Source of the DNA: Escherichia coli
GTDB lineage: Bacteria; Pseudomonadota; Gammaproteobacteria; Enterobacterales; Enterobacteriaceae
DNA length: 64,000 nt
Assembly (NCBI RefSeq): GCF_001677475.2
Contig: NZ_CP015229.1
Strand: one strand, 5' to 3'
Made by a program: the position numbers. How positions within the stretch are numbered: position 1 is the stretch's first letter; each line of letters starts with the position of its first letter. Shown here in pieces: positions 42,001 through 48,000 of the stretch.

Positions 42001-45000
42001 TCATTTACATGATCCAACAGGAAATGGCGTGACGCTCAATACTTCTCAGGTCAGTTACTATATGACTCAGCGTAAGAAAGGTATAACTCAGCATATCTCG
42101 GCCATGAAGGCTGGTATCTCAGTCCGTTCTGGTCGTCGGATCGAAAAAGGAGAGTGGGCAAAAAACAGTGTTCGGCACTGGCGCACACGCAAAGATCCTC
42201 TGGAAGCTGTGTGGGACAGCATGCTTGTTCCTCTGTTGAAAGAGAGGCCGGCTCTGACACCAACAACTCTACTGGAGATGCTACAGGATAAATATCCCGG
42301 CCAGTACCCCAACAGCCTTCGAAGAACAATGCAACGGCGGGTTCGCGAATGGAAACTACAGTATGGTACAGAGCAGGAGGTCATGTTCCGCCAGCAACAT
42401 CAGCCCGGCCTGCGAGGCCTGTCGGACTTTACTGAACTGAAAGGTGTAGTTGTCACCATCGCCGGTAAGTTGTTGGCGCATAAGTTGTATCACTTCCGTC
42501 TGGAATGGAGCCACTGGAGCTGGATGCGGGTTGTTCTGGGTGGTGAGAGCTTCTCTGCTCTGGCTGAAGGCCTGCAGGAAGCCCTCGGACAACTGGGCGG
42601 AGTGCCGGTAGAACATAAAACGGACAGCCTGAGGGCAGCATGGAAACAACAGGGCGAAGATGGACGCCGCGAGCTGACTGAGCGTTATGCTACTCTCTGT
42701 CAGCACTACGGAATGCAGGGCGTACACAATAATGCCGGTCGGGGCCACGAAAATGGCTCGGTTGAAAGTGCCCACGGACATCTGAAAAGGCGTATCTGTC
42801 AGGCGCTGATACTGCGGGGCAGTAACGACTTCAGCACCATAGAAGAATATCAGGCCTTCATCACTCAGCAGGTTATGCGGCACAACCGTAACAATCAGGA
42901 TCTGGTCAAGGAAGAACGTCTTCATCTGAAACCGCTGCCGCTTCGTCGCAGTGCTGACTATGATGAGCTGACTGTGAGGGTTAGTCGCAGCAGTACCATC
43001 AATGTGAAGCACGTCGTCTACAGCGTACCTTCCCGGCTTGTAGGTCAACTGTTACGGGTCAGGTTATGGGACGATCGTCTGAGCTGTTACGTTGGCAGCA
43101 GCGAGGTCATGAGCTGCCCTCGCGTCAGACCAGAAAAAGGGAAGACGCGGGCCCGTCGTATCGACTTCCGACATGTGATCGACAGTCTGGCAAAAAAGCC
43201 CGGTGCGTTCTGCCATGCAACGCTGAGAAATGACATCCTGCCGGACGATGAATGGCGGAGGCTGTGGCGTCGCTTATGTAATCATCTGGAGCCCGATATG
43301 GCAGGAAGGCTGATGGTACATGCCCTGAAACTGGCTGCAGGATACGACGATATCTCAGTCGTGGCAAAAGGTATGGAGCAGATGCTGAATACCCCGGGAA
43401 ACGTGGATCTGCACCGGCTGATGCGCTTCCTGGGTATAAAAGAAAAGGCGTTGCCGGTAGTCAATGTGATACAGCATAACCTGAGCAGTTATGAGCAACT
43501 ACTGCGTGGCAAGGGAGGTTCGCAGTGAGCAATATCCATCACCTTGAACATAGCCTGCGTAAACTACGCCTGACACGAGTTGGAGCTGAATGGCACGCTC
43601 TGGAAAAACGAGCGCTGGCAGAAGGCTGGACACCATCGCGCTATCTTCTGACGCTATGCAATGAAGAACTCCTGTGGCGCGAGAGTGAAAAACTGCGTCG
43701 TTATAAAAAGGAGGCCCGGTTGCCAGTTGCCAAAACGCTGAGCGAATACGACTTCAGTCAGGTGCCGGAACTGAATGGAGCTCAGTTCCGGCAACTCTGT
43801 GAAACGACAGACTGGGTTGATGCAGGAGAAAACGTTCTGCTGTTCGGAGCCAGCGGGTTGGGGAAAAGCCATCTGGCGGCAGCGATCGTGGATGGCGTAG
43901 TAGGTCAGGGCTACCGGGCCCGGTTCTACAGCGCAGGAGAGCTGTTGCAGGAACTACGTAAAGCCAGAGCTCAGTTGAAACTGAATGAGCTGCTACTGAA
44001 ACTGGATCGCTACCGGGTGATAGTGGTGGATGATCTTGGCTATGTCAAACGCGATAGTGCCGAAACGGGTGTGCTGTTCGAGTTAATAGCGCATCGCTAT
44101 GAACGTGGGAGCCTGGTGATAACCAGTAACCATCCGTTCAGCATGTGGGGCAGCATCTTCGTGGATGAGACTATGGCGGTGGCTGCGGCAGACAGGCTGA
44201 TCCATCACGGATATATGTTCGAACTGAAAGGGGAAAGCTACAGGAAAAAGACAGCGAAGGCAGTAACAAGCGCGACTTGATGTCGCCCTGAAGGGTGCGG
44301 CCAGTATAGTTGGCGCGAGTCGGCAAAACTAGTTGACGTCTAATACGCTCAACGCTGTTACTCCCCGTACACACGCCCAGCAACACCAGAACATAAGGGA
44401 TACCATCAGCACTGAGCACAGAACGCAGCACCAGAAAGCCATCAGGTGCCTCAAAACAAAACGCCTGCTTTTTAAGGCAGGCGTCTTTAACTTCATTCAT
44501 AAATTCAGGGTTGCGGGAATTTCTCACAACACGCTGCATATACCGGAGAATTTTATCGTTCATTCTCTCACCTGAAACGGGTGCCATATCGGCTGAACCT
44601 CAGCAACCAGTTGACGGGGACTTTCGTCCCCGCCGCGGTTTTCCTACTGCTTACACTGTAAGAACGCCGCAAACTCCGCTCCCCACAAATTCAGCCGGAA
44701 CTCACACAACGAGCCGTGTAACATCCAGATGGTGAAGATAACCGTCATACAAATTGTGACGGTGATAAGCGATTTTTGCGACATAGCGCTTGACTCCTTT
44801 TACAGAGAGGCGCTAACCTTCTACTTGCTTAAGGTACGAAGTGTTAGGGCCTCGGGTTAACGTTAAGTTGACTCGGGGCCTTTCCACATCAGGCCTTCAG
44901 GTTCACCCTCCAGCCATCAGCCGAAAGGCACCCACGCATAATTTACGATTTTTGCCCTGTACGGGCAATAAAAAACCCGCCATCACAGCGGGTAGTAAAT

Positions 45001-48000
45001 GGTTACCGGATACAGGTCAGAATTTCAGGCCAATGCCAGCAGTAACGCCACTCGTGCGCCAGTCGCCAGATCCGGAACCTTCGTAAGCCACATCCAGTGT
45101 AACACTCTCATTCAGGTTAAACTGTGCACCTGCAGCCCACGCAAGGGAGGTTTTTTTCGTGCTGTTGCTTTCAGAAAATCCGCCACTACTGTTAATATTG
45201 TCCTTAATTTTCAGGTCAGCGGTAACTTTAGCCACGCCTATCCCTGCCATCGCATATAAACTCATGTACTGATTAACCCGCCATGAAGGCCCCGCTAACA
45301 GACTCCAGTAATTCGCCCTGATATCCGTTCTGGCAGAAGCTGCCGGATTCTTAATCTTCCTGGTATGATCGGCTGACTGCACATCAATAAATGTCTGTGA
45401 GTTAGTGAGAGAACGCGTCCATGTAAAAGAGGTGATAACGCCAAAATCATCCGTTATCTCGTAGCGATACCTGATATTAATGCCCTGTGGATTTTTATCC
45501 TTGCCTTCATATCCACTGACCCGACCATCTGTATATTCGCCCAATGAAGAAAAGTAGTTTCTGTTGATGAAATGACTGAAAGTCTCCCTGTTATGAGCAG
45601 TCGCATCCTTTACAAAATCCTTCAGTCCCGGAAACTGAAAGTGCGCATACCCCAGAGAAATTGTATGGTCTCCTTCTGCTGCATGTGCTGGCATGGCTAC
45701 CATGCTCGTCCCAATAACCACACACGAAATAATATTATAAATATGCTTCATTTTTAGATTATTCCTGTTATAAAAAGGTACGGTAATTTGCAATCTTTTT
45801 TACTTAACACAAATATAAAGCAAATATATTGTATTGATATGATAAAAAGTTTTTATTGATGTAGATTTTCTTATTAATCATATATTGATGTATTAATAAC
45901 CAAGACCTTATCTATATACGGCTTTCGAATATCCCATGTTGCACCACCGGAATAATGCTCACAGGAATATATTTTATTTCCTGTAGCACCAGTGGATGTG
46001 GTATAAATCGGTCGATCATAAGGAGTTCTTTTCCAGTTATAATACCCGACCAGTGCAGGCATGATTGCGCATGGATATCCAAGGTCCTTTTCAAATTTGA
46101 TATCAACAGGTATTAACTTCGCGTCAAGCAGCATCATTTCGCCATGATAAATCATCTCACCGTCCGGGTTATACATGGCGATACCATACTCAGAAGGTGG
46201 AGTAACCATATTCGCGAAAGCATAAACCGTCGTAACACCAGGGTTCATTCCCCTGACAATTACATGAAGCCTTAGTGCATGATATCCATCAATCTGTTCA
46301 TGCGTGTACATGACATCGGCCTTCTTCTCTGTTCTGATAAAGAAAAAACAACTTTTGCCTGACGGGATTGATGTTTTAAAAAAAGCCTTTTCCGTCGCCG
46401 GTATGGTGCCTTTGTTGATCAGACACTGCGGTGTAAAACCAGGACTTATCCATACGCTGCCATCCGGCTTCATAATGCTCAAACCATACATGACACTTAT
46501 CCCCAGAATGTATAAATATAAGATCCCATACCCTGCTCAAGATTCGACCACGTCACCGTATTGCCATTAATGGTTATCTTCGGTACTTTCCGATCCGCAA
46601 ATACATTATTCCAGGGAAATAAACAACATACAGCCTGCAATGATTTCCCGTCGGGTTTATTCGTGTACGTCTTTGAGCCAGACTCCGCTGTAAATCTGTC
46701 CAGGAAAAATACCGGAGTCAGCACGCCCGTAACATTAACGTTATTTCTGTTATAAATGGCAAAACCGTATTCCAATACTCACCTCCTGATCAGCGTAATC
46801 TGCCTATGCGAACAGCCAGTCGTCCATTCTGGTCATAAACCTCAATTTTATCATTGCGGATCACCAGTCCTACATTCTGATTAGAGTAACGAATTGTCAG
46901 TTGCCCTTGTGACGTAACACTGAAAAGGCCTCCAATATTCAGGTTACCCTGAGAATCAACCTGAAAGTTTCCGTTCTGAATAACGGCGCTCCGGATAACT
47001 GGCGAAGTGATACTTACCCCGGCTTTTACCTCATCCGCCACAACCTTCCGCGACACCAGTGTTTCAATCACCGCGTCATAAATCATCGCTTTCGGGATCA
47101 CTACCTTGCCACCTGATACCGCAAACGGATAGGCTGTGTTATCCGGGTTGTTCGGGTCAAAGACAAACAACTGCGACGCAGAAATTGCAACCTGACTTAC
47201 AGGCCTGCCTTCACTGTCTTTTCCGGCGACAATCCCGATCCCCGCAGTGATGCCATCAACTCCCGCTTTTTTTGACCACATCGCAAGGAAGGCCTCACCG
47301 CCTTCTTTATCCAGTTTAGTGATGCGCTTGTCGACCTCATTAAGCGATTCACTGGTTGACGAATCCAGTGTGGTTATGCGGGTTTCAATACCACCAATCG
47401 TTCTTGTCGTTTCTTCCCTGAGAGTCCCTACAACTTCGGTTGTCTTAATTGCAGCATCCTTTACAGCCTGCCCCTGCGCGTTTTTTATTTCTTTACGCAG
47501 CTCGGACACAACCGGCGACTTTGCAGCCTCATCGCGGATCTGGTCAATGATGGCCTTCACACCGATCTGTGTTTGTGCCTGTGTGCCTTTTTCACCATTC
47601 CATGGACCTTTCACTCCTGCCGCGTTAACAAAACGTATCCAGTAAAATCCCGACCAGCCAGGGTCAACCGGATCGCCATAAACCTGCCCGGGAGTTGTGG
47701 CAACCAGTACCGCATCCGCAAGGTCATCTTCCGTACCCCGCCAGATTTCAGTCAGTGAGTGTCCCCGGTAATTTGGCATATCCCATTCAAGAAGAACCGA
47801 GCCAAATCCTCCTGTCGCCTTAAAATTCAGCGGTTTTGTGGGAAAATCAACAGTCATTAAAGTACTGTCAATCTCAATACCCGGATTCAGTGCATATGAG
47901 GCACCACCCGATGTTCGACGCCGGGCGAGTTTAAGACCAACCAGTTCCTCACGGGTCACAAATGCGTGACGTCCGTCACCACGCTGCCCGGTGCCAATTT

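Follow-up and report, generated by a model that had tools for sequence, protein, structure and literature searches.

A probable hok/sok-type toxin–antitoxin module beside lom in 933W-type Stx prophages lies at the locus of the small RNA 24B_1

What is encoded between lom and the next tail-region gene of 933W-type Shiga toxin (Stx) prophages? The question is raised by a stretch of 64,000 nucleotides (nt) from Escherichia coli (assembly GCF_001677475.2, contig NZ_CP015229.1), referred to here as the window, in which the original prediction placed a hok/gef-like type I toxin gene of 46 codons at positions 44784–44644 of the minus strand. Our analysis indicates, with a probability of about 0.8, that this locus is a compact type I toxin–antitoxin module of the hok/sok type, carried as a moron between the two phage genes. 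The locus of 24B_1, a small RNA published from phage phi24B, is the antitoxin position of this lom-adjacent Hok module, with the same sequence, promoter, and genomic position.

The toxin gene and its ribosome-binding site are located as follows.

44644–44784, minus strand: hok-family toxin gene, 46 codons and a stop codon (hidden Markov model (HMM) matches, pN/pS, identity to WP_000078907.1)
44793–44798, minus strand: hok Shine–Dalgarno sequence AAGGAG, 8 nt 5′ of the ATG (read from the sequence)

The open reading frame (ORF) runs from an ATG to a stop codon and encodes the 46-amino-acid (aa) peptide MSQKSLITVTICMTVIFTIWMLHGSLCEFRLNLWGAEFAAFLQCKQ. Its most hydrophobic 17-aa stretch comprises residues 6–22 (LITVTICMTVIFTIWML), with a mean Kyte–Doolittle value of 2.32. 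The alignment with a Hok/Gef family HMM, suggested as a check in the original prediction, was performed, and the Pfam model HOK_GEF (PF01848) matched with an independent E-value of 4.7e-8 (33 bits), residues 8–44 corresponding to positions 6–42 of the 42-position model (37/42 positions). PHROG 251, described as "MokW-like host killing", matched with an E-value of 2.8e-24, and the best NCBIfam model was HokA, NF007290 (E 9e-10; residues 6–45 against profile positions 8–47 of 50). The predicted toxin gene is borne out by these three sources. The peptide has the general build of the Hok family, namely a length of around 50 aa (here 46), one N-terminal transmembrane helix, and a conserved C-terminal part containing cysteine. 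The ORF is far beyond what chance would produce, and its product belongs to the Hok/Gef family.

A database search returned 56 relatives from Escherichia, Shigella, and Salmonella; nearly all of the named ones are Hok/Gef proteins, and most are exactly 46 aa long. The 46-aa subfamily of these three genera has an invariant ending, ...GAEFAAFLQCK(Q). Residues C27 and C44 (in 32 relatives) and the AAFLQCK motif are invariant, and SLCE.R is conserved. The ratio of non-synonymous to synonymous polymorphism (pN/pS) is 0.26 in the hok frame versus 0.75 and 1.5 in the other two frames, and the 933W-type clade shows no non-synonymous and up to six synonymous differences in the peptide. Both observations indicate that the peptide is maintained.

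The gene had been called unannotated. This is true of older GenBank phage records: the gap between lom and the following gene (L0129 in 933W, AF125520; vb_24B_43 in phi24B, HM208303) is empty there, and phi24B encodes an identical 46-aa peptide in an ORF that its record leaves without annotation. It is not true of RefSeq, in which the Prokaryotic Genome Annotation Pipeline (PGAP) names the identical peptide WP_000078907.1 "Hok/Gef family protein", with an Ail/Lom protein on one side of it and a hypothetical protein of 133 aa on the other.

Hundreds of E. coli chromosomes and Stx phages contain the ORF with its surroundings, 801 bases in all, at about 98.5% identity. A unit of the size of the predicted RNA was found in 1749 of the 5426 complete E. 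coli genomes (about a third), in up to nine places per genome. At about 80% identity, the module is also present in phage P88 (L085, NC_026014.1, 34760–35132) and in ST131-type chromosomes (H51–H55); in P2-like phages (Peduoviridae, Xuanwuvirus) it lies near the genome end and adjoins tail genes. Its occurrence in unrelated phage types at this level of identity means that the module travels as a self-contained moron. For comparison, 80 related viral loci were collected using the peptide alignment as a query, and 56 of them are distinct over a 451-nt unit; the counts of variants given below refer to these.

The elements of the sense strand and the border with lom are listed below.

44975–44993, minus strand: intrinsic terminator of lom, upstream border of the module (terminator scan; 8-bp stem followed by TTTTTT)
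44940–44968, minus strand: hok promoter, −35 TTGCCC at 44968–44963, 17-nt spacer, −10 TAAATT at 44945–44940, predicted start at G44933 (read from the sequence)
44579–44933, minus strand: predicted full-length hok mRNA of 355 nt, the conserved unit (homology limits, fold, Rfam match)
44917–44933, minus strand: tac-like 5′ element GGGUGCCUUUCGGCUGA with two mutually exclusive partners (minimum free energy (MFE) fold, RNAalifold, 3′-truncated RNAs)
44579–44596, minus strand: 3′ element UCAGCCGAUAUGGCACCC, fbi-like fold-back partner of the 5′ end (pair conservation)
44664–44681, minus strand: downstream box in codons 35–40, pairing with the hok start-codon region 44767–44784 (inverted repeat I1; 16 pairs in RNAalifold)
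44613–44634, minus strand: hairpin CGGGGAC GAAA GUCCCCG of the 3′ untranslated region (UTR) (RNAalifold columns 317–325 with 330–338)

Diverged copies with about 80% identity, located in other phage and chromosomal contexts, align with the window from 44953 to 44579 and differ outside these limits. Homology among variants in different contexts begins just downstream of the lom terminator and ends right after GGCACCC at 44579, so the conserved unit consists of the promoter and the 355-nt mRNA. Its flanks vary among Stx phages, the P2-like phage P88, and chromosomal sites, and its boundaries coincide with those of the predicted transcript. The 3′ fold-back element ends 6 nt before the ATG (44572) of the next gene, and a longer call of that gene (ATG 44587) would overlap it; co-transcription of hok and the downstream gene, or processing between them, is possible.

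The sense promoter, TTGnnn-17-TAnnnT located 5–9 nt before GGGTGCC, is found in 52 of the 56 distinct family members. In one variant (L026), the promoter and the 5′ element are lost altogether. A consensus scan of 44450–45100 that required 4/6 matches per hexamer found no promoter; this rule excludes TAACCT and TTGCCC, which explains why both the hok promoter and the antisense promoter described below were missed. They were established by position, conservation, and homology. A leader of about 230 nt (44785–45016) had been expected upstream of the toxin gene. The leader is indeed structured; its length, on the other hand, was overestimated, as the transcribed part would be about 149 nt (44933–44785), followed upstream by the promoter and then by the lom terminator.

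The 355-nt RNA folds with an MFE of −153 kcal/mol (z −6.6), and its first 17 nt pair with the last 18 nt. Fifteen pairs of this helix are kept in 94.8% of cells (37 distinct sequences), as against 25–52% with slid partners. The 5′ element can alternatively form a local hairpin with GUGGAAAGGCCCC (44887–44875), which appears in the RNAalifold consensus and in 3′-truncated RNAs; RNAalifold favours this hairpin over the 5′–3′ closure. A 5′ end with two exclusive partners (tac/fbi) is a hallmark of the hok mRNA of plasmid R1. A fold-back of this kind, together with the alternative 5′ structure, is predicted for the lom-adjacent mRNA as well, and it is conservation, not covariation, that argues for it. 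Nearly all 16 pairs of the downstream-box helix are invariant and so give no covariation signal, and the 3′-UTR hairpin contains two compensatory pairs (AU in 20 and GC in 17 sequences; AU in 18, CG in 15, and GC in 4). The Rfam family RF01794 (sok/hok leader) spans 44771–44933 of the minus strand end to end with 35.6 bits (E 1e-5). The hokW match to RF01794 falls on the hok-sense strand; therefore, this family describes the hok-sense leader.

On the opposite strand, three features lie within the leader.

44790–44819, plus strand: antisense sok-type promoter, identical with p24B_1, −35 TTGACT at 44790–44795, 18-nt spacer, −10 TAACCT at 44814–44819 (conservation, sokW homology, PMC4426718)
44826–44886, plus strand: predicted Sok-like antisense RNA of about 60 nt with a single-stranded 5′ tail, a 16-bp hairpin at 44846–44882, and the 3′ end GGGGCCUUUCC (ends by SokW homology)
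44858–44877, plus strand: the 20-nt 24B_1, TAACGTTAAGTTGACTCGGG, loop and descending arm of the antisense hairpin (exact string match, antisense to the hok leader)

The antisense promoter, in the form TTGnnn-17/18-TAACCT, is present in 55 of the 56 variants, and its −10 box is the same hexamer, at the homologous position, as that of sokW. Mutation of the sokW promoter abolished antitoxin activity (PMC8621323). As in hok/sok systems, a cis antisense gene with its own promoter is thus found inside the leader of the toxin mRNA. The ends of the antisense RNA, approximately 44826 and 44886, are set by analogy with the annotated ends of SokW. Within these limits the predicted RNA folds with −27.8 kcal/mol (z −4.3) and has the same build as SokW (z −4.95), consisting of a tail, a hairpin, and a U-rich end. 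A plus-strand antisense RNA over roughly 44785–44900 had been anticipated in the original prediction; both the near-universal promoter and the published 20-nt reads at 44858–44877 agree with this.

24B_1 is encoded in the lom–vb_24B_43 region of phi24B, was represented by 2223 reads of 20 nt at 80 min post-induction, and was assigned the promoter p24B_1 with the boxes TTGACT / CGCTAACCT (PMC4426718). It has been presented as the first functional RNA of microRNA size in prokaryotes. The identity of phi24B with the window over the 24B_1 region is 97.6%, and the constructs used in its study can be mapped onto the module.

44828–44908, plus strand: 81-nt in vitro construct of the "24B_1 precursor" (oligonucleotides in the PMC10732415 supplement)
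44796–44984: published 189-nt deletion of phi24B (mapped from PMC4426718 primers)
44531–45096: complementing pUC18 insert of 566 bp (mapped from PMC4426718 primers)

[quoted passage not shown] The toxin ORF itself remains, preceded by an FLP recognition target (FRT) scar; therefore, read-through from lom into hok is conceivable. Judging by its primers, the pUC18 insert contains the whole module including the complete toxin ORF, and it is called "the 189-nt region" in PMC10732415. Because the deletion affects parts of hok and the insert holds a complete toxin gene, the published genetics do not single out the small RNA. The phage with the deletion showed faster induction and more progeny (PMC4426718). 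The 81-nt precursor construct was bound by Hfq with a dissociation constant of 25 nM, and ATP was lower in cells carrying the 24B_1 locus on a plasmid or prophage (PMC10732415). Both the Hfq binding and the fall in ATP fit a Hok/Sok module. Since Hok-family toxins cause membrane damage with loss of ATP, the drop may stem from leaky production of Hok. The 20-nt species of defined ends could arise by processing of the antisense hairpin or of the sense–antisense duplex.

The words hok, sok, and toxin–antitoxin are absent from both 24B_1 papers (PMC4426718, PMC10732415), and 24B_1 still figures in a 2025 review among the trans-acting, microRNA-like RNAs, without a link to hok/sok. In the open-access and bioRxiv literature, no paper linking 24B_1 to hok, sok, or an antitoxin was found, and one that we have not seen could exist.

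The module would work in the following way. The constitutive promoter at 44968–44940 of the minus strand would produce a stable mRNA of about 355 nt with its 5′ end locked to its 3′ end, and burial of the hok ribosome-binding site and start codon in internal helices would keep the full-length mRNA translationally inert. The convergent promoter in the leader (44790–44819, plus strand) would supply a short unstable antisense RNA of about 60–80 nt, which is the presumed equivalent of Sok and the published 24B_1 precursor. The antisense RNA is perfectly complementary to the leader (44826 to about 44886); by pairing with it, it would block activation and mark the duplex for cleavage, and the abundant 20-nt 24B_1 would most simply derive from the antisense RNA, or from the duplex, by processing. 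When antisense synthesis stops, as may happen upon prophage induction, prophage loss, or transcription shut-off, the 3′ end of the mRNA would be trimmed, its 5′ end would refold onto GUGGAAAGGCCCC, and the 46-aa peptide would be made. The peptide would then enter the inner membrane via residues 6–22 and dissipate the membrane potential and ATP.

The weak side of this scheme is mok. In R1, Sok blocks the translation of mok, to which the translation of hok is coupled. The overlapping mok frame that had been expected in the leader is not intact in the window, where only a remnant can be noted.

44863–44889, minus strand: remnant of a mok-like frame, 8 codons from the conserved ATG 44889 (MWKGPEST*) or 24 codons from GTG 44887, ending at 44813 (ORF analysis)

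A mok-like frame of 61–70 codons, starting from an upstream ATG and ending at +83 inside hok, is found in about 20 of the 56 variants. Five viral loci (L009, L017, L027, L029, and L043; match 2501–2638) that are 4–6% diverged from the window keep a frame of 61 codons, owing to an additional T within AACTT(T)AACG; this T is missing from the window and from 933W/phi24B, where the frame stops after eight codons. The hok ribosome-binding site is located 28 nt outside the stretch covered by the antisense RNA.

Several results weigh against a functioning hok/sok-type module. In the 933W-type variants, including the window, the mok-like frame is cut short before hok, and alignment with hokW shows no start codon in the window at the position of the canonical mokW AUG. 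Without an intact mok frame, the classical coupling, in which Sok blocks mok and thereby hok, cannot run as in R1. Repression must then use another route, such as duplex cleavage or structural locking. The peptide misses the curated NCBIfam cut-offs (38.4 versus 89 bits for HokA, NF007290; 22.7 versus 73 bits for the Hok family, NF007279); the experimentally validated HokW is likewise below the latter cut-off (53.6 versus 73 bits), so this threshold is not decisive. The leader does not reach the RF01794 gathering score of 59. Covariation in the 5′–3′ helix is weak, with two double changes that are equalled in 55–119 of 500 shuffles, because the helix is largely invariant. In silico truncation of the 3′ end refolds the 5′ end and raises the probability of being unpaired at the hok Shine–Dalgarno sequence, which is mostly paired in the folds, only from 0.32 to 0.42; as the ribosome-binding site is hardly opened, an R1-like activation step lacks firm support. 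The minus-strand transcript, its ends, and the toxicity of the peptide are predictions from sequence, and in the expression data of an omics paper on enterohaemorrhagic E. coli under ciprofloxacin only hokE turned up. Deletion of hokW–sokW delays lysis and halves the phage yield (PMC8621323); the phenotypes of the 189-nt deletion are the opposite. Regarding the biological role, for which prophage stabilisation or abortive infection had been proposed, PADLOC found no defence-system match in the analysed DNA, so a function in defence or abortive infection is without support.

With mok broken, the locus could be a decaying or silenced hok, in which the toxin gene is retained but untranslatable and the antisense RNA alone is active. 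Several chromosomal hok loci of E. coli K-12 are inactivated. The mok-like frame of 8 or 24 codons in the 933W-type variants, set beside relatives of 93–95% identity that keep 61 codons, would agree with such decay, as would the normal growth of lysogens (PMC10732415). The mok-less 933W-type clade, however, is exactly the one in which the peptide shows no non-synonymous changes, and the inconsistency of the mok-like frame over the whole subfamily suggests that mok was never required. Silencing therefore appears to us very improbable. The published reading, in which 24B_1, 20 nt long and released from an 80-nt hairpin precursor, is a trans-acting microRNA-like regulator of d_ant, the region upstream of S, and sdhB mRNA and the 46-codon ORF is irrelevant, seems unlikely too, if somewhat less so. 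It draws on the 2223 identical reads obtained after induction (PMC4426718), on the opposite effects of the deletion and the plasmid on lysogeny (PMC4426718, PMC10732415), and on binding of the mature RNA to sdhB mRNA, which was weak (<10% at 100 nM; PMC10732415). Nevertheless, the ORF on the opposite strand is a significant Hok/Gef match under purifying selection, the promoter and the RNA sit exactly at the sok place of hokW with the same −10 box, and both the deletion and the complementing insert touch hok. The two readings are not mutually exclusive, as a Sok-type RNA could also have targets in trans.

Beyond the hok/sok-type module itself, we put forward a wider proposal, tentatively and at somewhat less than even odds: that the 24B_1 "microRNA" is a processing fragment of a Sok-type antitoxin RNA or of its duplex with hok mRNA; that the lysogeny bias, faster induction, and lower ATP come wholly or partly from Hok and from the damage done by the 189-nt deletion; and that the 46-aa subfamily is independent of mok. 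The gene taken alone is unremarkable and has an annotation already; the system to which it belongs is a second, uncharacterised Hok module of Stx phages that lacks a canonical mok. The main value of the analysis lies in the reinterpretation of 24B_1 as an RNA from the antitoxin position. Stx-converting phages drive the virulence of enterohaemorrhagic E. coli, and shifts between lysis and lysogeny affect toxin release. Of the two Hok modules in the reference Stx phages, one has been studied, and the second is also found in P2-like phages. The drop in ATP and the changes in phage development would be explained more simply by a toxin gene on the opposite strand. The 24B_1 studies extend over ten years, and neither their mutant nor their plasmid is a clean tool. 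The mok-less module offers a natural case for studying the control of Hok translation without mok; if the 46-aa subfamily does work without mok, its silencing route would differ from that of R1.

The gene downstream of hok, the homologue of 933W L0129 and phi24B vb_24B_43, is interrupted in the window.

41936–44344, plus strand: IS21-family element in the next gene downstream of hok (BLAST against 933W; NCBIfam)

The element encodes IstA (42029–43528, 226 bits) and IstB (43525–44280, 267 bits), both over the NCBIfam cut-offs. The insertion leaves the hok unit untouched, and the first 76 codons of the interrupted gene remain (44572–44345). The 933W alignments on both sides of the element share 9 nt, an apparent target-site duplication. 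Elsewhere in the window, the Hfq-binding small RNA STnc560 gave a strong Rfam match at 6660–6872 on the minus strand (275 bits), and sRNA-Xcc1 was matched at 26847–26935 on the plus strand (69 bits), close to the prophage end, in the region matching 933W L0142 and the att side. DNA unrelated to 933W at 27637–30493 contains a group II intron (Rfam domains at 27721–29451), with a reverse transcriptase/maturase ORF at 28053–29270 (TIGR04416, 438 bits).

The segment 27637–30493 replaces the 933W segment L0135–L0141, which includes mokW, hokW, and sokW. Since a sensitive Rfam pass over the whole window revealed no second hok/sok-like RNA, the lom-adjacent module is the only Hok module there. In 933W, mokW, hokW, and sokW are annotated at 58,460–58,734, and the lom-adjacent locus lies about 13 kb away, at 45.5–45.9 kb; therefore, the reference Stx phages carry two Hok loci. 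The possibility that the lom-adjacent locus is itself the published hokW–sokW was considered and rejected, as the published primers encode a different peptide of 51 aa (MKQQKAM...DYESEK); neither the hokW primer nor the sokW probe (PMC8621323) has a match in the window. In the 933W record AF125520 (L083, 14461–14673), mokW is an in-frame N-terminal extension of hokW (MLNTCRLASYVPKGKEKQA followed by HokW) and not a separate overlapping frame.

When the module is compared with known systems, the closest in its DNA is 24B_1 of phi24B (Nejman-Falenczyk et al. 2015; Bloch et al. 2023), with the same 20-mer, the same promoter boxes, and the identical 46-aa peptide; the difference is that 24B_1 was published as a stand-alone trans-acting RNA and that the toxin ORF was not annotated in HM208303. 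Among the chromosomal Hok proteins of E. coli, HokA provides the best NCBIfam model; however, at 38 bits the peptide is far under the equivalog cut-off of 89, and it is not HokA.

The hokW–mokW–sokW system of 933W and Sakai prophage 5 (Takada et al. 2021, PMC8621323) belongs to the same kind of phage, with mRNAs of about 350–390 nt in both cases. The antisense −10 box TAACCT is identical and located at the homologous position of the leader, the antisense RNA likewise combines a tail, a long hairpin, and a U-rich end, and it interacts with Hfq in both systems; sokW is partly dependent on Hfq and RNase III (PMC8621323). The 46-aa peptide and the validated HokW share 37% identity (E 1e-8) in an alignment spanning the conserved Cys core. 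For the validated hokW mRNA, closure of the same kind is predicted, nt 1–12 with 375–387, and this mRNA has the same GGGUGC...GCACCC ends as the lom-adjacent mRNA; the inner segment is different, yet still complementary. The systems differ in the length of the peptide (46 versus 51 aa), in the absence of a mok start at the canonical place in the lom-adjacent module, and in the RF01794 score (35.6 bits versus 113.5 bits for hokW).

With hok/mok/sok of plasmid R1 (parB), the lom-adjacent module shares a small membrane toxin with a HOK_GEF match, a stable folded mRNA with a predicted 5′–3′ fold-back, and a short cis-antisense RNA whose promoter lies within the leader. It differs from R1 in having no intact overlapping frame and in being borne by a phage instead of a plasmid.

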